Part shown: positions 98-16,539 of the stretch, piece after piece
Numbering within the stretch: position 1 is the stretch's first letter
Layout of the letters: every line of letters begins with the position of its first letter
Origin: Myxococcota bacterium
Lineage (GTDB): Bacteria; Myxococcota_A; Polyangia; Polyangiales; Sandaracinaceae
Reading direction: 5' to 3'
Length of the DNA stretch: 44,779 bases
Assembly (NCBI GenBank): GCA_036149055.1
Contig: JAYZQJ010000120.1
Location: 1-44,779, forward strand
The notes under the pieces: generated by a model
Seen by the model: the letters and a program-made list of their open reading frames with translations, nothing else
The model's database searches: none
Told to the model about the DNA's origin: nothing
Position numbers and translations under genes: made by a program

Positions 98-98
<1 letters not shown>

Positions 99-994
99 TA
101 AAAGTAATAGAGCGCCGTCAGCGAGCCGAGGAAGATGTCCCACGGCTCACCCTGCACGCTCGTGCCGAAGCCCCACACGTCGAGCGACGATGCCGGCGCG
201 CCGGCCCGGCTCTCGCCGATGCCGACCGAGCGGTAGTCGAAGTACAGGCCCACGCCCGCCTGGAGCGAGAGCTGCGGCACGTCGATGAAGCCGAAGTGGA
301 TCTCCGCGCCGACGCGGCCGCCGATCTGGAAGAGGAAGCCGTTTCGGCCCTGATCCTGGTCCGAGCTCGCGCCGAAGAAGGTGCCGCCGACGCCCCCGAT
401 GTTCAGCTCGGGGATGATCAGGAACTTGTAGTGCTCGGCGTGGAAGATCGCGAGCGGCACGCCGGCGTGGAAGGCGAACGCGAAGGCGTTGTCGGACGGA
501 GCCGACATGCTGCCGCTGCTGACGCTGCCGCCGGAGAAGCTGAGGCCGAAGCCGAGATCCACGCCCACCAGCTCCGAGATCCAGATCCGGGCGCCCAGGG
601 TGGGCGCGCTCAGGGTCCCGATCTCACCCATGCGGTTCACGGTCGGGACGCCGAGCAGGCCCATGAAGCCCACGCCCACGTGACCCACCGCGTGGCGCGC
701 GTGATCGCTCTGGCCGTCGGACGGCTCCGCGGCGCTCGACGCGGCGGGCGGCGGGCTCGTGGTGTCGACGGGAGGCGGCGTCTCGGCCTGCGCCTGCTGC
801 CCGGTCGGGCCGCCCTGATACCAGGGCTGCTGCTGGGGCGGCGGCTGCTGCTGCTGGGGCGGCGGGCTCTGGGTGTCGTCGGGCGGCGGGACCCAGACGC
901 CCCCCGCCTCGGGATCGATGTCCTGGGCGGCGGCCACGCTCGCGAGGCCGAGGGTGAGGAGGGTGGAGATCGCGGTGAAACGAAGCTTGTTCAT
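98..994 (-). CDS. Secreted outer-membrane beta-barrel-like protein with Pro/Gln-rich N-terminal linker
   Basis: ATG at 994 preceded by GAGGA; signal peptide MNKLRFTAISTLLTLGLASVAAA; PPPQQQQ tract; alternating hydrophobic/Gly strands; C-terminal aromatic LYYF typical of BAM substrates. Confidence 0.7.
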
Positions 995-1128
995 GTCGCT
1001 GGTCCTCGGGAGGTCGGGCACGTCCGGGGTCGCGGTCATCTACGGCGCGCTGCGCCCAGCCTTCCCCCGACGGCCGCACGCGCTTAGCACGTCCGCTTCA
1101 TCCCAGTCACACGTCGCCGATCGGATAC

Positions 1129-3138
1129 GTGTATGATGACGGCGTGACTGAAGAACGAAGGCGCGCCAGCCGCCTCTCCACCTCCGCCCGGATCCTGTGG
1201 CGGGCCGAGGGGGACGACTTCCTCCAGCTCGATCGGGTCCGAGACGTCAGCGAATCCGGGGCCTTCGTGGTCACCGACGCGGTCCCGGCCGAGGGCGCGG
1301 TGCTCGACGTGGAGCTGCACGACGAGGCCGGCACCACGCTCGCCTCGGGGCGCGCGCGGGTGGTGCGGGTCGCGCCGGACGGAGTCGGGATCGCGTTCGT
1401 CGATCTCACCGTGGACGCCTCCAAGGTGTCAGAGACGATGCCACCTCCCATGCCGCCGCCGCTCCCCTCGAAGCCGCCGGCGGTCGAGCAGGAGTGGCGG
1501 GCCCCGGAGCTCGAGCCGCTCTCGGTGCCGCGACCCGAGGGCGTGGTCATCGGTATCGATCTCGGTACGACCAACACCTGCGCCTCCTACGTCGTCGACG
1601 GGCGCCCGGTGATCATCCCGGGGCGCACGGGGGGCAACACCATCCCCTCGATGGTGAGCTTCGACGCCGACGGGCGGATCCACGTCGGCCAGCGCGCGGC
1701 GGACCGGCAGATCCTGCATCCCCGGCGCACCGTCTACGGCTCCAAGCGCCTGATCGGGCGCACCTGGCAGGAGGACGTCGCCGCCGACGCGCAGGGCCAC
1801 TTCGCCTTCCCGCTCGCGGAGGCGGAGGGCCAGCGCTTCGGCATCGACCTCGGGGACCGCGTGGTCAGCATGGACGCGATCGCGGCCCAGGTGCTCCGCG
1901 ACGTGCGCAGCACCGCCGAGGACTTCCTCGGGCACCGGGTCGGCGCGGCCGTCATCACGGTGCCGGCCTACTTCAGCGAGGTCCAGCGCGAGGCGGTGCG
2001 CCGCGCGGCGGCGATGGCCGAGCTGACCGTGCACCGCATCGTCAACGAGCCCACCGCGGCCGCGGTCGCCTACGGGCACGCGCGAGGAGAGGAGTCGCGG
2101 GTGGCGGTCTGGGACTTCGGGGGCGGCACCTTCGACTTCTCGGTCGTCGACATCCGGCACGAGCGCTACGAGGTGGTGGCGACCGGGGGCGACAACTTCG
2201 TCGGCGGAGGCGACTTCGACGACACGCTCGCCGGCGCGATCTTCGAGCGCTTCCTGGCCGACGCCGGGATCGAGGAGATGGAGCCGAGCCCGCAGCAGGT
2301 GGCCCGGCTGCGCGAGGTGGCGGAGCTCTGCAAGCGCGCGCTCAGCGTGCAGACCGAGTTCGACGTGCGGCTGCCGGAGTTCTCGCGCGAGCCGCGGCGC
2401 GACCTCTTCGTGACGGTGACGCGCGAGGAGCTCGAGGCGTGGACGCGGCCGCTCGTCGAGCGCACCCTGACCATCGCCCGCGGCGTCCTCCTCTCGGCCT
2501 CGATCCTGCCGGAGGAGATCGACGACGTGGTGCTGGTCGGCGGGACCACGCGCATCCCGGCGGTGCGCCGCGCGGTGGCCGAGCTCTTCGGCCGTCGCCC
2601 GAGCCAGCGCATCAACCCCGACGAGGCGGTGGCGCTCGGCGCGGCGCTGCTGGGGCACGAGATCGCGGGCGGCGGGCCCGTCCTGCTGGATCTGCTGCCG
2701 ATGACGGTGGGGCACGCGCTCGACGGGCGGCTCTTCGAGCCGGTCGTGAAGCGGAACGCGCGCCTGCCCTGCGACGAGGTGCTCACGCTGACCGCCGACG
2801 CGGGAGGCCTCGTGCAGCTGCCGCTCTTCCAGGGCGAGTCGCCCGACGTGGCGCAGGACGAGTACCTCTGCACGGTGGTGGTCGAGGACGCGCGGCTCGG
2901 CGGCGGGGAGCGGGCTCAGGTGCGGCTGAGCTTCGACGAGCACTGCGTGATGGCGGTGGACGCCTTCCACGAGCGCTCCGGCGCCCCGCTCGCCCTCCGG
3001 CTGGATCGAGAGCGACCCCTCGAGGAGATCCTCGCGGCGCTCGGCGCCTTCGACGGCCCCGACCGGGGCGCGACCTGGCAGCTGCCGGAGACCCGCATCA
3101 GCAAGGTGCTCGGCAAGCTCTTCGGCTGGTTGCGGTGA
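1129..3138 (+). CDS. PilZ domain-Hsp70 (DnaK-like) fusion protein
   Basis: N-terminal RRRASR (RxxxR) and DVSESG (DxSxxG) PilZ motifs; Pro-rich linker; Hsp70 motifs GIDLGTTNT, TVPAYF, NEPTAAA, DFGGGTFD, VGGTTRIP, NPDEAVALGAA. Short substrate-binding region with no evident full lid. Start could be GTG 1144. Confidence 0.9.
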   Translation: MYDDGVTEERRRASRLSTSARILWRAEGDDFLQLDRVRDVSESGAFVVTDAVPAEGAVLDVELHDEAGTTLASGRARVVRVAPDGVGIAFVDLTVDASKVSETMPPPMPPPLPSKPPAVEQEWRAPELEPLSVPRPEGVVIGIDLGTTNTCASYVVDGRPVIIPGRTGGNTIPSMVSFDADGRIHVGQRAADRQILHPRRTVYGSKRLIGRTWQEDVAADAQGHFAFPLAEAEGQRFGIDLGDRVVSMDAIAAQVLRDVRSTAEDFLGHRVGAAVITVPAYFSEVQREAVRRAAAMAELTVHRIVNEPTAAAVAYGHARGEESRVAVWDFGGGTFDFSVVDIRHERYEVVATGGDNFVGGGDFDDTLAGAIFERFLADAGIEEMEPSPQQVARLREVAELCKRALSVQTEFDVRLPEFSREPRRDLFVTVTREELEAWTRPLVERTLTIARGVLLSASILPEEIDDVVLVGGTTRIPAVRRAVAELFGRRPSQRINPDEAVALGAALLGHEIAGGGPVLLDLLPMTVGHALDGRLFEPVVKRNARLPCDEVLTLTADAGGLVQLPLFQGESPDVAQDEYLCTVVVEDARLGGGERAQVRLSFDEHCVMAVDAFHERSGAPLALRLDRERPLEEILAALGAFDGPDRGATWQLPETRISKVLGKLFGWLR

Positions 3139-3148
3139 GGGCGGCCGC

Positions 3149-4498
3149 TCACCCGAGCTGCTTGGCCTGACGCAGGAGCGCGATGGCCTCGTCGCGCCGG
3201 CCGGCGTCCGCGGCGGCCCAGCCGGCGTGCCGGAGGTGGAGGGCGAGCGCGCGCCGGGCGTCGGGCTCGCGGCGGGCGGCGGCGCGGCGGAGGAGCGCGA
3301 GCGACAGCTCGGGATCGGTGTCGTACAGCGCGTCCGAGAGATCGAGGTAGCCGCGGGGCGGGGGCTCTCCCGGCGCCTCCATCGCGGCGCGGGCGAGGCG
3401 CGCGGCCCTGGCGCCCGCGGTCCCGGCCGCCCGGATGGCCGCGGTCCAGAGCGGCGCCTCGACGCGCGCCCCGGCCTCGAGCGAGCCGATGGCCTCGTCG
3501 AGGTGGGCCGACAGCTCCTCGGGGTGCGCCTCCGCCGCGTGCAGCGCGGCGAGCCCGAGCCAGCCGGGGAGGGCGCGCGGGTCCTCGGGGCGCGGGCCGG
3601 GCGGGGCGCCCTCGAGCGCGGCGCGAGCCCGCGGGAGGAACGCCTCGGCCACCGGATCGGTGTGGGCGGCGGCCGCCGCCGACAGCGAGGTCAGCGCGTC
3701 GAGCTGCTCGCGCGCCACCGCGGCGCCCACCGGATCGGGGTGCCGGGCGAGCACCGCGCGCGCCCGATCGACCTCGACCGGATCGAGCGCGCTCGCCCAG
3801 GCGTCGACGTGGGCGGCGGTGATCGCGACCGCCATCGGATCGCCGCCCTCGGCCAGCCGCTCGAGCGCGTCCAGGGCGGCGGCCCGTCGGTAGCGCCCGG
3901 GCGCGGCGAGGGCCGCGACCGCCACCGCGAGGCGATCCGCGGGCGGCGCGTCGTCCGCGGGGAGCAGGCCGGCGGCGAGGCGCGCGGCGGCGTCCCGATC
4001 GCCCGGCTCGCCGCGTCGCCAGAGCACCCGGACCTCGCGGATCGCGGCCGCGCGCCGGAGCTTGGGCTGCTCGAGCCCCCGCCGCGCGGCCCGGCGGTAG
4101 GCCTCGAGGGCGGCCGGGAGCTCGCCGAGGGCCTCCCGCGCGCGGCCCACCGCGTAGGCGGCGCTCGCCTCGTCGTAGGTCCCCGCGCACCGGCGCAGCT
4201 CGGCCTCGGCCACCCGCGCCGCCGCCCCCGGTCGGCCGTCGATCAGCGCGCGCACGAGCAGCCGCGCGTCGCGGTGTCGGGCCCCGCGCTCGTCGGCCCA
4301 GCGCTCGCAGAGCCCCTCGAGCGTCTCGGGCTCGAGCTCCGCGGCCAGCCCCATCGCCCGCGCGAACGCCTGCGAGCGGCCGGCGCCCGGCGGCATCGGA
4401 TCGAGCAGCGGCAGCAGGGCCCGGAGCGCGGCCCGCTTGCCGAGCCCGCGCTCGAGCCGGTCGACGCCCCCGAGGGCGAGCTCGTCGAGGAGTCCCAA
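3149..4498 (-). CDS. Ala/Arg-rich helical repeat (TPR-like) hypothetical protein
   Basis: TTG start with GGAG upstream, 15 nt after the Hsp70 stop; TPR-like segments such as AAYAVGRAREALGELPAALEAYRRAA and AGRRDEAIALLRQA. Confidence 0.65.
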   Translation of the reverse strand: MGLLDELALGGVDRLERGLGKRAALRALLPLLDPMPPGAGRSQAFARAMGLAAELEPETLEGLCERWADERGARHRDARLLVRALIDGRPGAAARVAEAELRRCAGTYDEASAAYAVGRAREALGELPAALEAYRRAARRGLEQPKLRRAAAIREVRVLWRRGEPGDRDAAARLAAGLLPADDAPPADRLAVAVAALAAPGRYRRAAALDALERLAEGGDPMAVAITAAHVDAWASALDPVEVDRARAVLARHPDPVGAAVAREQLDALTSLSAAAAAHTDPVAEAFLPRARAALEGAPPGPRPEDPRALPGWLGLAALHAAEAHPEELSAHLDEAIGSLEAGARVEAPLWTAAIRAAGTAGARAARLARAAMEAPGEPPPRGYLDLSDALYDTDPELSLALLRRAAARREPDARRALALHLRHAGWAAADAGRRDEAIALLRQAKQLG

Positions 4499-4513
4499 GC
4501 TCAGCGCTCCATC

Positions 4514-7078
<2,565 letters not shown>

Positions 7079-7119
7079 CTCCCGGGGCGATCCTTACCGC
7101 CTGGAGGCGTCCGCGTCGA

Positions 7120-7491
7120 TCAGCGCAGCCACGGATCGTCGGCCGGGGCCACGTCGGGGATCGGCGCGCGGGCCTCGCGCTCCAGGCCGAGGGCGCGGAC
7201 GAGCGAGGGGCGGAGCACGAGATCCGACAGCTCCAGGGCCCGGTGGGCGCGCCGCGGGGCGGGGGGCGGCGGCGGGGGCGCGCCGGCCGCGCCGTGGGAG
7301 TCCGGGTGGGCCTCGAGCGCGGCCCGCAGACGATCGCGGGGGTGCATGGTGAGCGCCTCCCACGCGGCCCGGATCGTGGCGCGCGTCTCCTCGTCGGGCG
7401 CGTCCTCGGCCAGCTCCCGCAGCCGCTCGGTGATCGCCTGCGGGCCCTGCATCGGGTCCAGATCCCAGCGCTCGAAGGGGTTATCCGCCAT
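7120..7491 (-). CDS. Small J-domain-like (DnaJ-like) protein, canonical HPD replaced by APD
   Basis: NPFERWDL..QAITERLRELAEDAPD..TIRAAWEALT.HPRDR aligns by eye with the J-domain consensus DYYEILGV..EIKKAYRKLA..HPD..EINEAYEVLSDPEKR; lies immediately upstream of the Hsp70. Confidence 0.6.
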   Translation of the reverse strand: MADNPFERWDLDPMQGPQAITERLRELAEDAPDEETRATIRAAWEALTMHPRDRLRAALEAHPDSHGAAGAPPPPPPAPRRAHRALELSDLVLRPSLVRALGLEREARAPIPDVAPADDPWLR

Positions 7492-8701
7492 CGATCTTCC
7501 TCCCCTTGGCCTCGAGCCGGAGCTTGGCGTCGGGCAGCCGCTTGAGCTGCGGGTAGAGCGACTCCGCGCGCCGCACGTCGGCCTCGGCCCGGTCGAGCGT
7601 CTCGGCCTGGTTCCAGGGCGAGACGGTGTCGAGCGCGCGCATCGCCCGGTGCACGAGCAGGTCGGCGAGGATCAGGCTGCCGTTGCGGTGGGTCGGGCAG
7701 AGGGCCACGGCGCGCTCGGCGTCCCGGAGCTGCTCCTCGAGGGTCGGCGCGACCTCGGCCGAGAAGACGTACATCTGGGCGCAGGGCGCGGCGTAGGCGA
7801 GCTTCGAGGGGTCGCGCTCGATGCGCCGCGCGAGGCTCTCGGTGGGCTCCGAGAGCGGCCGGAGCAGGGCCCGCACGTCGTCCCACCGGCGGTCGCGGTA
7901 GCGGTCCCAGAGCACCGAGGTCACCCGCTGCACGAGGAAGCGCTCGACCTGCTCGTCCGCGTCGGCCCAGCGCCAGACCGCGACCGCGTCCCAGAGCAGC
8001 GCGACCAGCTCGTCGGTCGGGGCGTCGCGCGTGATCGCCTCCTCGAGCGACCCGTCGACCCGGGCCACGGCCGCGTCCACCGCGGCGGCCCGGGCGCGGC
8101 GGGCTCGCGCGACGGCCTTGCGGGTCACGGCCTCGTCGGCCCGGCCGAGGGTGCACGCCTCCTCGACCCGGCCGAGGACCCGGAGCGCCGCCGCCGCGCG
8201 GTCGGTGAGCTCGCGCGCCCCGGCGAGCGCCTCGGCGCCGAGCCCGTCGATCGGCCCGAACGGCGCCTCGGCCGTCGCGCGCTCCACCTCTCGCGCCGGG
8301 AGCGCGTCCCGCGCCACCGCCCGGCCGACCTGGAGCAGGTACGTTTGCTCGGTGGCGAGGAAGAGCCACATGCCCAGCGAGCGGATCCGGGCGCGCTCGG
8401 CGCCGGTCGCGTCGGCGAGCCTGCCGTGGAGGAGCGCGAGGTGGTGGGCCAGGGCCGGGGAGAGGGCGGCCGGATCCGGCTGGGTGACCGCGCGCAGCAG
8501 CGGCGCGAGCTCACCGCGGTCGGCTCGCTCGATGGCCAGCGCGCCCTCGGTGCTCCGGCGGAGGCACACGAAGAGCCCCGCGGCCCGCGGGTGCGGGAGG
8601 GGCGCGTCCTCGCCCGCGAGCCCGCGCCAGAGCGAGGCCAGCCGGGCCTCGTCCTCGAGCCGCGTGAGCCGCGCGTCGTCTGCCTCTCGCCAGGCCTTCA
8701 C
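7481..8701 (-). CDS. Helical/TPR-like hypothetical protein (406 aa)
   Basis: Coding-like 3' part of ORF 7481..11521; GTG at 8701 overlaps the UPF0182 stop (GTGA); TPR-like DAERAVALCPTHRN and AEADVRRAESLYP; overlaps the next gene by 11 nt. Confidence 0.7.
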   Translation of the reverse strand: MKAWREADDARLTRLEDEARLASLWRGLAGEDAPLPHPRAAGLFVCLRRSTEGALAIERADRGELAPLLRAVTQPDPAALSPALAHHLALLHGRLADATGAERARIRSLGMWLFLATEQTYLLQVGRAVARDALPAREVERATAEAPFGPIDGLGAEALAGARELTDRAAAALRVLGRVEEACTLGRADEAVTRKAVARARRARAAAVDAAVARVDGSLEEAITRDAPTDELVALLWDAVAVWRWADADEQVERFLVQRVTSVLWDRYRDRRWDDVRALLRPLSEPTESLARRIERDPSKLAYAAPCAQMYVFSAEVAPTLEEQLRDAERAVALCPTHRNGSLILADLLVHRAMRALDTVSPWNQAETLDRAEADVRRAESLYPQLKRLPDAKLRLEAKGRKIDGG

Positions 8702-11466
8702 GGATCGGGAGTCTGCCCCGTCTCGCCCTCGTCGGTCGAGGGCTGCATCGCGCGCAGCGCCGCCTCGACCCGCTCGATCTCCTCGCCGTAGCGGGCCCAG
8801 TCCCCGCGTCGCTGGGCGGCCACCGCCTCCTCGAAGTGCCGCAGCGCGCGCACCCGGGGGTCGCCGGCCTCGTCCGGCGCGGGCGGCGGCGCGGTCTCCT
8901 CGGTGGGCGGAGGCGCGGCCTCGACCGGGGCGGCCGCGACCGGCGCGGCCTGACCGAACACCTGCGCGATCGCGAGGTCGAGGGTCTCGGCCATCGCGAT
9001 CCGGTTCTCGTGCACCACGATCACGCGCTTGAGCTGCGGGATCCGGCCGCCCTCCGAGCGCAGGTAGAGCGGCAGCACGTAGATCAGCGACTCCTCGATC
9101 GGGATCACGAGCAGGGTGCCGAAGTCCGCCTGGGAGCCGCGCTGGTCCCAGAGCGACAGCTGCTGCGAGATCTCGGCGTCCTGGTTGATGCGGTTGAGCA
9201 CCTGCTGCGGCCCGTAGACGAGGCGGTCGTTCGGGAACTCGTAGACGCGCAGCTGGCCGAGCTGCGCGCCGTCGTTGCGGGCCACCATCCAGGCGGCGAG
9301 GTTGTCCTTCCGCGCCGGGGTGAAGGGCAGCATGAGGATGAACTCGGGGTCCTCCTCGCCCGGCAGCCGCATCACCGTGTAGTAGGGCTCCATCGGCTCG
9401 CTCCGCTGCCCGCGGCGGAGCGAAGGGATCTCCCACTGGTCCTCCCGGTTGTAGAGCAGCTCGGGGCTGTCCATGTGGAAGGTCGACAGCATCTGCGCCT
9501 GCAGGTGGAAGACGTCGATCGGGTAGCGGAGGTGGCGCCGCAGATCCGCGGGCATCTCGTCCATGTCGGTGAAGAGGCGCGGGAAGATCCGCCGCCAGGT
9601 CGCGAGGATCGGGTCGTCCTCGTCCGCGACGTAGAGGGTGACGGTGCCGTCGTAGGCGTCGACGACCACCTTCACGCTGTTGCGCACGTAGTTGAGGCGG
9701 CGGTCGGGGGCGCGGCGGCTGTAGGGGTAGCGGTCGCTGGTGGTGTAGGCGTCGACGATCCAAGCGAGCGTGCCGTCCTCGCGCACGACGAGGTACGGGT
9801 CGGCGTCGAGCGCGAGGAAGGGCGCGAGCTGGGCGACGCGCTCCTCGACGCGGCGGTGCAGGAGCACCCGGCTCTCGGAGGAGAGGTCGTCGCTGAAGAG
9901 CACCTTGGCCTCGCCGGTGCGGATGGCGAGGGCGGCGCGGAGCAGGCGCGAGTCGAGCCGCACGCCCGCGCGCCCCTCGTAGTCGGCGTAGACGTTGGCC
10001 TCCGCCGAGGGGTGGTCGAACTCGCGGTTCGCCGTGCCGACGAAGGCGTAGTCGTTCGACAGCTCGCCGAAGTAGATCTGCGGCCGCGTCACCTCGACCC
10101 GCGGCATCGAGGAGACCGGCGGGATGTCCTGCACGAAGAGCACCGGGAGGCCCTCGTCGTCCGCGCGGTTCACCGGCCCGAGCGTGACCCCGTAGCCGTG
10201 GGTGAAGGTGAAGTGCTCGTTGATCCAGGTCCGGTTGGGCAGGCTCTCGCTCGAGAGCTCGCGCGGCGAGAGCATCGTCTGGCGCAGCTCGCCGTCGATG
10301 ACGTAGCGGTCGTTGTCGACGCTGACGAAGTCGTAGTAGGTGCGGATCTCCTGGATCTGCCCGAACGTGTCGAGGAGCGGGCGGTGATCCCAGAGCCGGA
10401 TGTTGTCGATCGTCTCGCGGTTGGCCTCGACGTCCGCCAAGGACAGGCCGAGCTCGCCGCTCAGCTCGCGGGTCTCCATGCCGCTCAGCCCGAAGGCGGC
10501 CCGGGTCGCTTCGATCTCGGTCTCGATGAACGGCCGCTCCCGCTCGAGCTCGTTCGGCTCGACGACGTAGGTCTGCACCATCGTCGGGTAGAGGCCGCGC
10601 CCCAGCACCCCCACCGCGAGGTAGAGGCCGATCGCGGCCCAGACGAGGACCAGCCGGCGCCGGGTCGCGCTGAAGAGCACGAGCGCGCCCGAGACGCAGG
10701 CCACCGCGAGCTGCGCCTGGATGAGGGGGAGGCGCGCGTTCACGTCGGTGTAGCCGGCGCCGGCCACGAGCCCCTCCTGCGAGATCACCAGCTGCGCCGA
10801 GGCGAGCCACGCCCCGAACGCGAGCACCCCGAAGAGCGCCGCGCCCAGCGCGCTGAGGTGCACGCGAGCCGCGCGGGTCCCCGCCGGTCGGCGCTCCTTC
10901 CAGCTGACGCTGCCGCGGGCGACGTAGAGGCCGAAGGTGGCCGCGAGCGAGAGGAGCGTGGCCCAGAAGAGGAACGCCCAGACCACGTCGAGGAAGGGCA
11001 GGGTGAAGACGTAGAAGCCGACGTCGCGGCCGAAGAGCGCGTCGACCTCGCCGAACGACTCTCCGTGGGCGAAGAGCAGCCACTCCCGCCAGCGCGCGGC
11101 CCCCACCAGCCCGACGAGGATGCCGAGCCCGAGCGAGACCGGCAGCACGAGCTTCGCGCTCGCGCCCTTCAGGTCGAGGGCCACCGTGCGGGCGCCCTCG
11201 CCGAGGTAGACGGGGGCCTGCCGATCCCGGACCGAGAGCTGCACCGCGAGGCGCAGGTTCCCGTAGAGCACGGCCGCGAAGCTCGCCCCCGCCGCGACGC
11301 CCAGCGCGAGCCGCGCCCAGAGCGGCGTGAGCAGCACGTCCGGGTGCCCCATCGTCTCGAACCAGCGCAGATCCACCCAGAGGCGGGCGAGCGCGGGGGT
11401 CGCGAGGACGGCGAGGGCGAGCGCGGCGGCGGTGAGGCCGAGCGTGATCCGGCGGGATTTCGACAT
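8698..11466 (-). CDS. UPF0182 family membrane protein
   Basis: LWVDLRWFET, DALFGRDVGFYVFTLPF, GYTDVNA, NIRLWD, QIQEIRTYYDF, DRY, FTHGYG, NYVRNSVKVVVDAYDG, HLRYP, GDWARYGEE motifs; multiple N-terminal TM helices. Confidence 0.93.
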   Translation of the reverse strand: MSKSRRITLGLTAAALALAVLATPALARLWVDLRWFETMGHPDVLLTPLWARLALGVAAGASFAAVLYGNLRLAVQLSVRDRQAPVYLGEGARTVALDLKGASAKLVLPVSLGLGILVGLVGAARWREWLLFAHGESFGEVDALFGRDVGFYVFTLPFLDVVWAFLFWATLLSLAATFGLYVARGSVSWKERRPAGTRAARVHLSALGAALFGVLAFGAWLASAQLVISQEGLVAGAGYTDVNARLPLIQAQLAVACVSGALVLFSATRRRLVLVWAAIGLYLAVGVLGRGLYPTMVQTYVVEPNELERERPFIETEIEATRAAFGLSGMETRELSGELGLSLADVEANRETIDNIRLWDHRPLLDTFGQIQEIRTYYDFVSVDNDRYVIDGELRQTMLSPRELSSESLPNRTWINEHFTFTHGYGVTLGPVNRADDEGLPVLFVQDIPPVSSMPRVEVTRPQIYFGELSNDYAFVGTANREFDHPSAEANVYADYEGRAGVRLDSRLLRAALAIRTGEAKVLFSDDLSSESRVLLHRRVEERVAQLAPFLALDADPYLVVREDGTLAWIVDAYTTSDRYPYSRRAPDRRLNYVRNSVKVVVDAYDGTVTLYVADEDDPILATWRRIFPRLFTDMDEMPADLRRHLRYPIDVFHLQAQMLSTFHMDSPELLYNREDQWEIPSLRRGQRSEPMEPYYTVMRLPGEEDPEFILMLPFTPARKDNLAAWMVARNDGAQLGQLRVYEFPNDRLVYGPQQVLNRINQDAEISQQLSLWDQRGSQADFGTLLVIPIEESLIYVLPLYLRSEGGRIPQLKRVIVVHENRIAMAETLDLAIAQVFGQAAPVAAAPVEAAPPPTEETAPPPAPDEAGDPRVRALRHFEEAVAAQRRGDWARYGEEIERVEAALRAMQPSTDEGETGQTPDP

Positions 11467-11521: not shown

Positions 11522-12064
11522 GTGGTCACCGGGAGGCCGAAGCGAAAGGGGAGGGCGTGGAAGAAAGCCACGCTCGTCGGCGCCGCGTTCGCGCTGCTGC
11601 TCGGCGCGCCTCTCCTCGTCTGCGGCCAGCGTCCGACCAGCCTACGCCCCGCGATCGAGGCTCGCTACCCGGACGTCCCCTGGGTGGAGGCGGACGCGCT
11701 GGCCGGGTGGATGCGCGCGGGCGAGGTCCACCTGCTCGACGCGCGTCAGCCCGAGGAGTACCGGGTGAGCCACCTCCGGGGGGCGGCGCGGATCGACCCG
11801 GACGCGCCCGACCTCGCCGCGCTCGACGTGCCTCGAGACGCGCGGGTGGTCGTCTACTGCTCGGTCGGCTGGCGGAGCGGCGGCGTGGCGGACCGGATGC
11901 GGCGGGCCGGCTGGACGGACGTGCACAACCTCGCGGGCGGTATCTTCGCCTGGGCGAACGCCGACCGGCCGGTCTACCGAGGCGAGCGCCGGGCCCGCGC
12001 CGTGCATCCCTACGACGCGACGTGGGGCCGGATGCTGCGCGCGGAGCTCAGAGCACCTCTTTGA
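11522..12064 (+). CDS. Rhodanese-like domain protein with N-terminal membrane anchor
   Basis: LLDARQPEEYRVSHLRGA, active-site loop VVYCSVGWRS, NLAGGIFAW. Start chosen at GTG 11522 (uncertain). Confidence 0.85.
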   Translation: MVTGRPKRKGRAWKKATLVGAAFALLLGAPLLVCGQRPTSLRPAIEARYPDVPWVEADALAGWMRAGEVHLLDARQPEEYRVSHLRGAARIDPDAPDLAALDVPRDARVVVYCSVGWRSGGVADRMRRAGWTDVHNLAGGIFAWANADRPVYRGERRARAVHPYDATWGRMLRAELRAPL

Positions 12065-12482
12065 GCCGCTCCTTGAGGGCGCTGGCGTCGAGGTCGGTCA
12101 GCTCCTTGTCGATCTCCGCGTCGACCAGCTTCGCGGTCGGCCCGTCGAGGTTCTTTCGGAGCAGCCCGAGGAAGCCCGGCTCGGCGACGAGCACCAGGCG
12201 GTGCACGCCCTTCTGCTGACGGAGCTTGCCGAGGGTGTCGGCGACCTCCTTGGCGAAGGTCTGCGCCTCGTGCTCCTTCGCGGAGTGCTCGGGGCGCATC
12301 GCGCGGCTCTGGGGCCCCATGCGCTCGTGCTGGGAGCCGGGGGAGTCGGTGACCAGGTCGCCCTCGTGCAGCCGGGAGGCCGGGTGCGCGAGATCCTGGA
12401 TCTCCTCGAGCGGCTCCGTGCGAGCGTCGAGCCGGAAGAAGCGGGCTTTGGCGCGCTGCGCCACGGTCACGAGGGTGCTCAT
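12048..12482 (-). CDS. Host attachment protein family (baeRF1-related)
   Basis: LVTVAQRAKARFF..HPASRLHEGDLVTDSPG..FAKEVA..LVLVAEPGFLGLLR..EIDKELT matches the Host_attach pattern; GAAGG RBS. Confidence 0.85.
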   Translation of the reverse strand: MSTLVTVAQRAKARFFRLDARTEPLEEIQDLAHPASRLHEGDLVTDSPGSQHERMGPQSRAMRPEHSAKEHEAQTFAKEVADTLGKLRQQKGVHRLVLVAEPGFLGLLRKNLDGPTAKLVDAEIDKELTDLDASALKERLKEVL

Positions 12483-13494: not shown

Positions 13495-15399
13495 GTGAGC
13501 GCCGGAGACGACCGTGCGGCGGAGGTGGCAGCGGCGGAGGTGGCTGCGGCGGAGGTGGCAGCGGCGGACGTGGCGGCGGCGGTCGTCGCGGCCGCGGAGC
13601 TCCGCGACGCGCGCCTCAGCCGGGACCAGCGGCGGCGTCGGGGCGTGGTGCACACCCCGCCCGAGCTCGCCCGGTTCATGGCGCGACGGGTCGACGCGGC
13701 GCTGCAGGAGCTCGGGCTCGCGGGCCTCGGCGACCGGCGGGTGTCGCTCCTCGACCCCGCGTGCGGCCCCGGGGTGTTCCTCGCGGCCGCCCTCTCGGAG
13801 GCGACCGGCCCCGGGCCGGGCGAGGTGCTCGGGCTGGACGTCGACGCGGGGGCGCTCGAGCTCGCCCGGGAGATCCTCGACCCCGCGTTCGCCCGCCGCG
13901 GCTGGCCGCTGTCGCTCCGCCGCGCGGACACGCTCTCCGCGCCGCCGCCGATCGACCCGGCGCGGGTCCCGGTCGTGCTGGGCAACCCGCCGTGGGCCGG
14001 CCGCACCGCCAACCGGGAGGCCGCCTACACCGAGGGGCTCCTCGACGACTTCCGGCGCGAGCCCGACGGCGGCCCGCTGCGCGAGCGCAAGATCGGCGTG
14101 CTCTCCGACGACTACGTGCGCTTCTTCCGGTGGGCGGCCGAGGCGGTCCGGGCGCGCCCGCGCGGGGTCGTCGCGCTGGTCACGAACGCCTCCTTCCTCG
14201 ACGGCCCCGTGCACCGCGGGATGCGCGCCGCGCTCCTCCGCTGGTTCGACGCCATCGAGGTGGTCGACCTCGGAGGGTCGGCTCTCTTGGCGAAGGCGGG
14301 GGAGCGGGACGGCAACGTGTTCGGCGTGCGGGTCGGGGCCGCGATCACGGTGGCCGTCCGCGGCGTGGCGTCTCGCGCCGTCTCCGCCGCCACTGTCTCC
14401 TCCGCCGCAGTGTCCTACAGCGCAGTCTCCTACAGCGCAGTCCGCGGCGACGCCGAGGCCAAGCTCGCGGCGCTCGACGCCGGGGCCCCCGCGCCCACGC
14501 CGCTGCGCGCCGCCCCGCCGCTGCACCGCTTCGTGCCCGGCCCGCCGGCCGATCCCCGCTACGACGCCTGGCCCGCGCTCCCGGCGCTGATGCCCTTCCA
14601 CCGCGAGGGCGTGCAGACCAACCGCGACGCTTTCTGCGTCGACGCCGATCCCGAGGCGCTGCGCGCGCGCCTCCGCGCGTTCGCCGAAGGCGCCCCGGGC
14701 CCGTTCCCGGGCAAGGCCGACGTGGCGAGCCGGCACTACGACCCGGACCGGGCCCGCGCCGCCGTCCGCGACGCGCTCGCCGCCGACCCGGACGGGATCC
14801 TGCGCCGCGTCGCCTACCGCCCGCTCGACGTGCGGTGGATCGCGCCGATCTCGACGGTGTGTCACCGCCCCCGACCGCCGCTGCGCGCGGCCATGGCCCA
14901 CTCGCCCTTGGCCCTGCTCACCGTGCGCAAGGACCGCGGGCAGCGCCCCTGGAGGCACGCGGCCGCGACGCGCCACCTGGTCGACAACTGCTTTCTCAGC
15001 TCGCGATCGAGCTGCCGGACCCGCGCGTTCCCGTCGCACCGCCCGGACGGCGAGCCCAACCTGGACGCCGCCGCGCTCGCCGCCTGGACGCCGGCGCTCG
15101 AGTGGAGCCCGGAGGACCTGATCCGCTACGCGCTGTGCGTGCTGGCGTCGTCCCCCTACCGCACGCGCTGGGACGGACAGCTGCGCGCCGATCACCCCCG
15201 GCTCCCTCCGCCGCCGGACGCGTCGGTCCGGAGCGCGTGCGCCGCCGCGGGGGCCCGCCTGGCGGAGGCCCTGGACGCCGGACCCGACGGCTCGGCGGTC
15301 GAGGTCGAGATCGGCCACCACCGGGCCCCGGGGGCGGGGCGCGTCGCGGAGGCCCTCGCGGGGTGCGACGCGATGACGCAGGGGTGGCTCGGTGATTGA
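13495..15399 (+). CDS. N6-adenine DNA methyltransferase with type ISP-like C-terminal specificity domain (no nuclease/helicase)
   Basis: GVVHTP (motif X), LLDPACGPGVF (motif I), GNPPW (motif IV), DDYVRFFRW, TNASFLDG..RGMR..L, NVFGVRVG, GVQTNRD, AYRPLDVRW, YALCVL.S..YR.R....L..DHPRLP. Confidence 0.85.
   Translation: MSAGDDRAAEVAAAEVAAAEVAAADVAAAVVAAAELRDARLSRDQRRRRGVVHTPPELARFMARRVDAALQELGLAGLGDRRVSLLDPACGPGVFLAAALSEATGPGPGEVLGLDVDAGALELAREILDPAFARRGWPLSLRRADTLSAPPPIDPARVPVVLGNPPWAGRTANREAAYTEGLLDDFRREPDGGPLRERKIGVLSDDYVRFFRWAAEAVRARPRGVVALVTNASFLDGPVHRGMRAALLRWFDAIEVVDLGGSALLAKAGERDGNVFGVRVGAAITVAVRGVASRAVSAATVSSAAVSYSAVSYSAVRGDAEAKLAALDAGAPAPTPLRAAPPLHRFVPGPPADPRYDAWPALPALMPFHREGVQTNRDAFCVDADPEALRARLRAFAEGAPGPFPGKADVASRHYDPDRARAAVRDALAADPDGILRRVAYRPLDVRWIAPISTVCHRPRPPLRAAMAHSPLALLTVRKDRGQRPWRHAAATRHLVDNCFLSSRSSCRTRAFPSHRPDGEPNLDAAALAAWTPALEWSPEDLIRYALCVLASSPYRTRWDGQLRADHPRLPPPPDASVRSACAAAGARLAEALDAGPDGSAVEVEIGHHRAPGAGRVAEALAGCDAMTQGWLGD
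13516..13590 (+). repeat. 15-bp in-frame tandem repeat (AAEVA x4 plus a degenerate fifth copy)
   Basis: GCGGCGGAGGTGGCA / GCGGCGGAGGTGGCT / GCGGCGGAGGTGGCA / GCGGCGGACGTGGCG / GCGGCGGTCGTCGCG. Confidence 0.9.
14380..14439 (+). repeat. 15-bp in-frame tandem repeat x4 (VSAAT VSSAA VSYSA VSYSA)
   Basis: GTCTCCGCCGCCACT / GTCTCCTCCGCCGCA / GTGTCCTACAGCGCA / GTCTCCTACAGCGCA. Confidence 0.85.
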
Positions 15400-15411: not shown

Positions 15412-16539
15412 GTGGCGACAACCTCTCGGCACTCCATGGCCGCCGGCAAGAAGCCGCGCCTGACGGCGAAGCTCCGCCGGGCGCCGACGAAGTACGAGCC
15501 GAAGGCCCGCCTCGCTGCGGGCGGCATGGCCGAGGTGTGGCGCGGCGACGCCGTCTTCGAGGACGGCGGCCGGCACGCGGTGGCCATCAAGCGCGTGCTG
15601 CCGGAGCTCGGCAAGCAGCAGGTCTATCGCTCGATGTTCGAGGACGAGGCGCGCCTCGGCATGATGCTGCAGCACGAGAACATCGTGCGGGTCTACGACG
15701 CGCGCGACGTCGGCGGCACGTTCATCATGATCATGGAGCTGGTCGACGGGACGTCGCTCAAGGACCTGCTCGAGCGGGCCCACGCGCGGAAGGCGGCGAT
15801 GCCGGCGGCGACCGCGCTCTTCATCGGGCTGGAGCTCGCCAAGGCGCTCGACTACGCGCACACCGCCCGGCACCCGGACGGTCACGCGCTGGGCATCATC
15901 CACCGCGACGTCTCCCCCCACAACCTGCTGCTCAGCCGCCACGGGCACGTGAAGCTCGCCGACTTCGGGCTCGCCGACGCCAACGTGCACGAGACCCACC
16001 TCGGCGACGGCATGCTCGGCGGCAAGCTCGGCTACCTCGCCCCCGAGATCATTCGCCAGGAGCCCACCACTCATCAGGTCGACGTCTTCGCCCTCGGCAT
16101 CGTGCTGTGGGAGATGCTCTGCGGCCGCCGCCTCTTCGTCGGCGACGACGACGCGGGCACCGTCCGGGCGGTCGCGCGGTGCGAGGTGCCGCCGGCCCGC
16201 GCCTACAACAAGGGCGTCACCGAGAGCGTCGAGGAGCTGCTCCGCGATCTGCTCGCGAGCCACACCGAGGAGCGCGTGCTCACCGCGGCGAGCGCGGTCG
16301 CCCGGCTCGAGTCCATCCTCCACGACATCGATCGCGAGGTCGGCCCGCGCGACGTCGGCCTCCTCGTGGGCCTGCACCTCGCCACCGCCGCCCGGGCCAA
16401 GCAGCCCGAGCCCCCCGCCGCCCTCGCCGAGCTGCTCGCCGCCGAGCTGGCGATGTTCGCCGAGGCCGCCGCCGAGGACGGAGCCGCGCCGCTCGGCGCG
16501 ACCCCGCTCGACCCCGATTCGTTTCTGTCGGGTTCCTGA
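15412..16539 (+). CDS. Hanks-type Ser/Thr protein kinase, cytoplasmic
   Basis: LAAGGMAEVW, VAIKR, HENIV, IIHRDVSPHN, VKLADFG, GKLGYLAPE, DVFALG; no TM segment. Start could be ATG 15436. Confidence 0.93.
   Translation: MATTSRHSMAAGKKPRLTAKLRRAPTKYEPKARLAAGGMAEVWRGDAVFEDGGRHAVAIKRVLPELGKQQVYRSMFEDEARLGMMLQHENIVRVYDARDVGGTFIMIMELVDGTSLKDLLERAHARKAAMPAATALFIGLELAKALDYAHTARHPDGHALGIIHRDVSPHNLLLSRHGHVKLADFGLADANVHETHLGDGMLGGKLGYLAPEIIRQEPTTHQVDVFALGIVLWEMLCGRRLFVGDDDAGTVRAVARCEVPPARAYNKGVTESVEELLRDLLASHTEERVLTAASAVARLESILHDIDREVGPRDVGLLVGLHLATAARAKQPEPPAALAELLAAELAMFAEAAAEDGAAPLGATPLDPDSFLSGS

Follow-up and report, generated by a model that had tools for sequence, protein, structure and literature searches.

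A conserved TPR1, J-like, Hsp70 and TPR2 gene cassette in Myxococcota that lacks the canonical J-domain trigger interface

The cassette and its conservation

We analysed a 44,779-nucleotide stretch of DNA (the window; positions 1 to 44,779 of contig JAYZQJ010000120.1, assembly GCA_036149055.1) from a bacterium of the Sandaracinaceae (Myxococcota), in which a gene for an atypical Hsp70 lies among genes for putative partner proteins. A previous reading of the sequence alone, made without database searches, had described here a chaperone operon of five tightly packed co-directional genes. The five open reading frames, all on the minus strand, were confirmed and showed a coding-like GC content at third codon positions (0.94-0.98). 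They encode a UPF0182 membrane protein (8698..11466, 922 aa), the all-helical protein TPR1 (7481..8701, 406 aa; AlphaFold2 predicted local distance difference test score, pLDDT, 95.7), a J-like protein (7120..7491, 123 aa), the Hsp70 (4514..7078, 854 aa) and TPR2 (3149..4498, 449 aa, TTG start), the names of TPR1 and TPR2 referring to the tetratricopeptide repeat (TPR). The junctions were as claimed: a GTGA overlap between UPF0182 and TPR1 (8698-8701), an overlap of 11 nt between TPR1 and the J-like gene (7481-7491), and gaps of 41 nt before the Hsp70 gene (7079-7119) and 15 nt before TPR2 (4499-4513). Also as claimed, neither grpE nor a canonical dnaJ was found within the operon; canonical J proteins and two canonical DnaKs are encoded elsewhere in the source genome, which holds a single copy of each cassette gene.

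In Pfam searches, the UPF0182 protein matched PF03699 (921 bits) and, in keeping with membership of that family, it has six hydrophobic segments over threshold between residues 9 and 289. The Hsp70 matched PF00012 (255 bits) over residues 9-384 only, TPR2 gave a sub-threshold match to TPR_2 (E 0.013), and TPR1 and the J-like protein had no match. A scan for promoters and terminators returned none of either, a result that is uninformative in GC-rich DNA. Contigs from RNA runs showed depth in 27-30 of 30 bins, flanks included. Pieces of such contigs span Hsp70 and TPR2 in three runs and one also spans the divergent UPF0182/rhodanese region, so that these contigs speak neither for nor against co-transcription.

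The conserved unit consists of four genes: TPR1, J-like, Hsp70 and TPR2. We pooled 86 loci in which the C-terminal half of the Hsp70 scored above 200 bits and removed 7 duplicates, which left 79 distinct loci. Among the myxobacterial and bradymonad (Bradymonadales) loci with enough DNA, 64 of 68 had the J-like gene upstream of the Hsp70 gene and co-directional with it, and 64 of 68 likewise had TPR1, which was upstream and co-directional in 60. TPR2, the fourth core gene, has moved or been lost in part of the family; it or a homologue lay directly downstream of the Hsp70 gene in 49 of 73 loci, the downstream gene of the bradymonads being a TPR2 homologue (hhalign 97.7%, E 1.6e-12). UPF0182 is an upstream neighbour outside this core and was present in 2/56 pooled cassette loci. 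The carrier genomes are kin, and these counts do not represent independent events. The survey nevertheless indicated that the homologues of the four genes travel together, and the conserved order supports the earlier idea of a dedicated Hsp70 with J-derived and TPR partners of its own.

An orthologue of the Hsp70 was found in 25 of 31 genomes of the same family (one of the carriers being unpublished), three of them cut by contig ends, and in 0/29 genomes of other families in the same sample. Across the phylum, the profile of the C-terminal half had matches in 29/300 genomes, including 22/26 of one further family (f33). A motif scan of GTDB returned at least 121 matching stretches, 80 of them with flanks; among the matches listed, carriers included Polyangium, Polyangiaceae, Labilithrix, Sandaracinus, Nannocystis, Lujinxingia and Bradymonadales. 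The cassette was present in 17/81 genomes of the family of a Polyangium genome, a lower bound given that scoring was limited to 72 candidates per genome. Plasmids gave no cassette match, and viral contigs no convincing one (none in one search, and in another a 15-residue match that we took as chance). We found no account of this cassette in the literature covered by our search, outside which lay most subscription papers and supplements; the source data of PMC7159879 or the tables of PMC8265645 may list the genes.

Neighbouring genes, named by the look of their sequences (FtsH-like, HolA-like, Acc/FolC-like), were stable within clades. The gene for the FtsH-like AAA protease lay a few kb upstream on the opposite strand in L087 (519-2495) and in nine further bradymonad-type loci, a placement that probably reflects clade synteny. 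In three loci (L093:6881-9698, L140:6590-9251 and L176:5144-7500) the Hsp70 was split over two frames, by frameshift or assembly error.

Hsp70 and its partner proteins

The nucleotide-binding domain of the Hsp70 (residues 1-385; 5924..7078) is actin-like and carries the phosphate motifs and the catalytic Asp, Lys, Glu, Asp and Thr of the Hsp70 superfamily. Residue tallies were made on 62 aligned orthologue rows with 38-75% identity. The phosphate-binding and catalytic residues D12, K76, P132, D136, E160, D183 and T188 were invariant (62/62). The arginine that corresponds to DnaK R167 was lost in every row, position 156 (Gly156 in the window) being G in 49, A in 11 and S in 2; the Q378 position was mostly H, with Q in 2 rows. 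The linker leucines were lost as well, 107-132 residues separating positions 384 and 492 in place of the short linker. Both canonical DnaKs of the genome retain the arginine and the linker. The protein also fell short of the NCBIfam cut-offs for canonical DnaK (264 bits for a cut-off of 648, and 260 for 822) and far short of that for HscA. A wider family of the same architecture comprised 178 representatives at E <0.001; in 53 long Hsp70s that were aligned, the R167 column held Arg in 2 and Glu in 25.

The linker is replaced by an inserted beta-sandwich (about residues 386-480; 5639..5923), modelled with a pLDDT of 90-95, which had one Ig-like structure match (6mvf_A, Z 7.9, root-mean-square deviation (rmsd) 3.3 over 84 residues). 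It is followed by a substrate-binding beta domain (about 485-595; 5294..5626; pLDDT ~70), which matched the substrate-binding domains (SBDs) of Hsp70 structures with Z 11.6-12.0 and rmsd 1.7-2.9; a Foldseek match to the DnaK SBD had E 5.7e-7. Three helical bundles (about 602-845; 4529..5275) take the place of the lid, and the protein ends in a conserved LPxLGLV tail (G847 in 62/62, L/V848 in 62/62, V849 in 58/62). With a predicted template modelling score (pTM) of 0.38, the modelled arrangement of the domains in this half is of low confidence. In the SBD, the equivalent of P419 was P521 in 62/62 and that of K414 was R/K516 in 59/62. The sequence alignment to canonical SBDs spans just 48 columns, and we therefore left the equivalents of D477 and D481 unassigned. 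Thus, the protein shares with DnaK of the DnaK-DnaJ-GrpE system its catalytic residues, its SBD-beta fold and the P419 and K414 equivalents, and differs from it in family score and in the loss of the trigger interface.

The core of the J-like protein (about 7321-7482) is probably derived from a J domain and precedes a proline-rich tail. Aligned with 10 canonical J domains, it gave an hhalign probability of 61% (E 8e-5; controls at most 1.3%) across helices I-IV; roughly nine residues, the HPD loop among them, are deleted. It had E 0.039 with DNAJC8, an Atlas lead to DnaJ (0.86), and a best E of 0.0018 with Pfam DnaJ, E being below 1 in just 3/62 homologues. As judged from these scores, which lie below firm thresholds, it is likely a J-domain homologue. 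HPD was found between helices II and III in 0/62 homologues. The earlier reading had labelled the protein by an APD motif; APD as a modified HPD was ruled out, since it occurred in just 5/62 homologues and the HPD loop is deleted in the alignment. Another (H)P motif at residues 62-64 (H in 35, P in 60 and D in 11 of 62) lies after helix IV, off the J position. No longer, fused form of the J-like protein was seen among 8000 candidates, which is weak evidence.

According to the accessible text of PMC8215388, a J domain triggers hydrolysis through contacts at HPD, R167, Q378 and the linker residue L391, and therefore both sides of the trigger are gone here: the HPD loop in the J-like protein, and R167, the linker leucines and mostly Q378 in the Hsp70. 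The Hsp70 has kept its ATPase residues and its substrate-binding fold.

TPR-like folds had been proposed for the two other proteins, and structure comparison supported this although the Pfam scores were under cut-off. The C-terminal 160-200 residues of TPR1, approximately, fold like a 3-TPR domain and matched the TPR domains of FKBP52, PP5 and PfFKBP with Z 9.1-9.7 and rmsd 3.3-3.5, which is middling for helical repeats. The C-terminal half of TPR1 and TPR2 both form helix-pair solenoids, and the Atlas look-alikes of TPR2 were TPR solenoids. TPR2 had no detectable homology to TPR1 or to the giant TPR, GrpE-like and Zn-ribbon/TPR proteins of the distant loci described below. A hydrophobic, membrane- or signal-like segment was found in none of TPR1, J-like, Hsp70 and TPR2. 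A predicted complex of Hsp70 residues 386-854 with the J core and TPR1, in which TPR1 was scored, gave 0.75, against 0.76 with the Hsp70 half replaced, and is thus non-discriminating on binding. The succession of TPR1 and J-like recalls a split version of the TPR+J protein P58(IPK)/DNAJC3, itself a weak Foldseek match (E 3e-3, TM ~0.2). The cassette differs in having two polypeptides, no HPD and a TPR match confined to the C-terminal part of TPR1; we take this as a likeness, not as evidence of homology.

Specialised Hsp70s such as E. coli HscC had been invoked as a precedent. The analogy holds for specialisation: in HscC-DjlB/DjlC and HscA-HscB, as far as the available part of PMC8215388 describes them, a paralogous Hsp70 with altered substrate-binding loops likewise stands beside its own J-type partner, and the myxobacterial cassette also does without GrpE. 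It fails for the J mechanism. DjlB and DjlC are membrane-anchored HPD proteins with functional J domains that stimulate HscC (same source, in part), whereas the J-like protein has neither HPD nor a hydrophobic segment; the cassette Hsp70, at 854 aa, differs further by the absence of R167 and the linker, by an insert of about 100 residues and by three bundles for the lid.

Relatives in other phyla

Homologues of TPR1 and J-like also lay upstream of the same type of Hsp70, in the same order, in 17 of 28 non-myxobacterial loci (Streptomyces, Actinospica, Actinomadura, Pseudonocardiaceae, Ktedonobacteraceae, KSB1 and Syntrophobacterales), which have upstream genes for a giant TPR protein, an HPD-less J-like protein and a GrpE-like protein; the profiles used for these distant loci were built partly from the loci themselves. 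TPR1 was homologous to the C-terminal end of the giant TPR protein (hhalign 96.0%, E 4.9e-9, 380 columns), and the two types of J-like protein were homologous to each other (hhalign 97.2%), HPD being absent in 11 distant ones too. Pfam GrpE matched six of the ten GrpE-like proteins scanned, one above cut-off. A kinase gene was present within the DNA covered in 10 of the 17 cassettes, and most had a Zn-ribbon/TPR gene downstream. UPF0182 was found in none of the distant-relative loci. The other 11 of the 28 loci were mostly planctomycete, with different neighbours, or short contigs. Among 201 genomes of the genus of one carrier, Streptomyces, the long cassette was present in the carrier only. 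A convergent EACC1-like/CHAT pair flanked 9 of 11 actinobacterial loci, as detected with profiles derived from 5 of them.

Two further observations were made at distant loci. Long Hsp70 genes occurred in tandem in L114 (4798-8788), L165 (4855-8642) and L177 (4861-10121), from KSB1, Calditrichia and Syntrophobacterales, which suggests a heteromeric pair. Genes for Clp-type AAA+ proteins, and for CHAT proteins with terminal Clp_N repeats, were seen beside distant cassettes (L141:6691-10944, L119:12917-14041, L103:2500-4536), a hint of a link to proteolysis.

Proposed role, alternatives and neighbouring genes

On balance, and with limited confidence, we lean towards the view that the cassette encodes a dedicated cytoplasmic Hsp70 machine that works outside the canonical J-trigger cycle, as a client-specific switch or holdase. 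Judging from its residues, the Hsp70 would still bind and hydrolyse ATP, and its nucleotide state would govern the holding and release of one or a few specific clients, rather than general folding. TPR1 and J-like may form a split TPR+J co-chaperone, bringing in the client and controlling the Hsp70 in place of the HPD trigger, and TPR2 may serve as an accessory scaffold, perhaps one that binds the conserved LGLV tail. The cassette would be a streamlined relative of the longer kinase, giant TPR, J-like, GrpE-like, Hsp70 and Zn-ribbon/TPR cassette of other phyla.

Several points weigh against this view. Both the client and the activity of the Hsp70 are putative. The J homology is moderate (61%, E 8e-5; Pfam DnaJ E <1 in 3/62), and the SBD model is less confident than the rest (pLDDT ~70, pTM 0.38). 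In some genomes the Hsp70 stands apart from TPR1/J or TPR2: TPR1/J are missing in L038, L102 and L131 and inverted in L091, and TPR2 is directly downstream in just 49/73. Occurrence outside the two families is patchy (17/81; 1/201), as with accessory or defence genes. Finally, in each of the five family genomes that bear UPF0182, the gene sits immediately upstream, separated by 2 nt or joined in a GTGA-type junction.

The sequence-only reading had gone further and proposed that the machine is there to serve UPF0182 or to signal through it, which would give this family a functional context; one form that this could take is quality control of membrane proteins linked to FtsH. We now regard such a role as quite improbable. 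The linkage is not unique to the source genome: UPF0182 was detected in 4/31 family relatives, in all four next to TPR1 on its upstream side (in two of them with a contig break between), which brings the link, source genome included, to five genomes in four genera. Also in its favour, membrane proteins are the presumed clients of HscC, actinobacterial UPF0182 is phenotypically tied to FtsH/YccA in the accessible portion of bioRxiv 10.1101/2025.11.14.688347, and the FtsH-like gene mentioned above accompanies 10 bradymonad-type loci. However, UPF0182 was not found in 21/25 cassette-bearing family relatives, in 29/29 more distant carriers or in 17/19 named myxobacterial carriers, the remaining two of which had, respectively, a full copy (on a contig exceeding that of the cassette in length) and a weak fragment. 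Conversely, 13/29 genomes of other families had UPF0182 without this Hsp70, and none of the eight of these loci that were examined held a cassette gene. In a quick tree made without bootstrap, the five linked genomes fell within one clade of nine (SH-like approximate likelihood-ratio test 99), the other four members of which, 95-100% complete, lacked UPF0182 and retained the Hsp70. The simplest reading is a single arrival, upstream of the cassette and in a single subclade, followed by several losses. UPF0182 proteins are described as having seven transmembrane helices and a periplasmic dome and as being tied to FtsH regulation (same preprint, in part). Because of the clade-limited distribution, and of a periplasmic dome versus four proteins without a hydrophobic segment, UPF0182 is most likely a co-oriented neighbour and dispensable passenger, and the cassette does not supply the functional context that had been hoped for. 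UPF0182 and the cassette may loosely share a role in the quality control of membrane proteins, as the link spans five genomes and four genera.

The main rival to a client-specific machine is a sensor or threshold switch of a conflict pathway (anti-phage or lethal stress), in which the TPR proteins would sense, the Hsp70 would gate, and a caspase-like CHAT protease and EACC1 would kill, the myxobacterial effector being encoded elsewhere. We consider it unlikely. The EACC1-like/CHAT pair beside actinobacterial loci speaks for it, with Pfam CHAT matches at E 2.5e-28 and 3.9e-24 and EACC1 matches just under cut-off (E 1e-3 and 1e-4), as do a CHAT protein downstream in a Calditrichia locus, the highly sporadic occurrence in Streptomyces and a type ISP/IIG-like methyltransferase gene 2 kb past UPF0182 in the window; EACC1-caspase is a protease-activated pore module according to the available part of PMC12642450. 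Yet 0 myxobacterial-type named loci matched the CHAT, EACC1 or GrpE-like profiles, and PADLOC had no match for the core proteins (just OloA at E 0.012 and generic kinase matches). The actinobacterial loci may be a single event, with the CHAT pair on the opposite strand, and high prevalence in two families (25/31 and 22/26), stable contexts and the lack of plasmid matches fit poorly with a conflict system. A stress or conflict role, which the sequence-only reading had also entertained, nevertheless has some probability. We also think it very unlikely that Polyangia and Bradymonadales use the machine to build or chaperone some structure peculiar to their predatory, gliding way of life, in the way that cyanobacterial DnaK serves pili: it is common in the source family and in f33, Polyangium, Sandaracinus, Labilithrix, Nannocystis and Lujinxingia are among its named carriers, and a literature listing available in part contains specialised DnaK systems linked to pili, but homologous cassettes occur in the non-predators Streptomyces, Ktedonobacter and Syntrophobacterales, no Myxococcus, Corallococcus or Anaeromyxobacter was among the matches listed for 80 named loci, and no motility or secretion genes recur as neighbours. 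Decay into an inactive chaperone operon is the least probable reading by far. A canonical system deprived of HPD, R167 and the linker would be disabled, to go by the accessible text of PMC8215388, and the myxobacterial form lacks GrpE; conservation largely refutes this reading, as judged from catalytic residues that are invariant in 62/62 rows, a conserved SBD and C-terminal tail, and losses common to several phyla.

Two published groups of conflict systems resemble the cassette in part. The GAP1-N2 HSP70/GrpE systems (Kaur et al. 2020, PMC7159879, available in part) likewise bring Hsp70 together with GrpE, TPR and DnaJ-type domains in operons, in bacteria whose life styles are complex, and some have two Hsp70 genes, as do L114, L165 and L177. 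They differ in that the Hsp70 systems described in that text need a GTPase; among 12 window proteins and 44 neighbours from 14 distant loci, within 7 kb, neither a GTPase gene nor one for GAP1-N2 or FNIII was found. EACC1-caspase modules, including DnaK-fused forms (PMC7159879, PMC12642450, both in part), recall the pair beside the actinobacterial relatives. Their DnaK-like domain is protease-fused, 50% identical to DnaK and lidless (PMC12642450, accessible part), unlike the stand-alone cassette Hsp70 with its enlarged helical end, and no EACC1 or CHAT gene was found among the scanned genes of the window or in myxobacterial-type named loci.

A broader proposition, possible though rather doubtful, would see in the cassette and its relatives in other phyla a cross-phylum Hsp70 class without the HPD/linker/R167 trigger, controlled through the beta-sandwich insert, a split TPR + HPD-less J pair and the C-terminal tail; its members would be nucleotide switches that in some phyla gate signalling by a kinase or caspase, and Polyangia and Bradymonadales would have domesticated the machine without GrpE. 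The HPD motif is essential for Hsp70 stimulation in every system tested, within what the available text of PMC8215388 covers. Loss of both sides of the interface next to an invariant ATPase site offers a natural test of alternative Hsp70 control, and the insert at the linker a test of the effect of an inserted domain on allostery. Cultured carriers exist (Polyangium, Lujinxingia, Ktedonobacter and Streptomyces).

Other genes of the window lie on both sides of the cassette. A second Hsp70 gene, with an N-terminal PilZ domain (PF07238, E 3e-10), occupies 1129-3138 on the plus strand and converges on TPR2 with a gap of 10 nt; its product retains Arg at the R167 position, and the gene did not adjoin the cassette in 25 related loci. 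A 313-aa protein without Pfam match (98-1039, minus strand) resembles, in our own reading, an outer-membrane beta-barrel with a C-terminal Phe, and its gene was near the cassette in 5 related loci. Upstream of UPF0182, between 11327 and 13463, are a rhodanese-domain gene (plus strand), which is syntenic in close relatives, a baeRF12/Host_attach gene (12048-12482, minus strand) and a gene for a phosphonate-binding-type protein (plus strand). The type ISP/IIG-like methyltransferase (13495-15399, plus strand) has a specificity domain, just 634 aa and no nuclease or helicase match; its short N-terminal repeat showed a 15-nt difference in one RNA-run contig. A gene for a Ser/Thr kinase follows on the same strand (15412-16539), and both genes recur near the cassette in close relatives.

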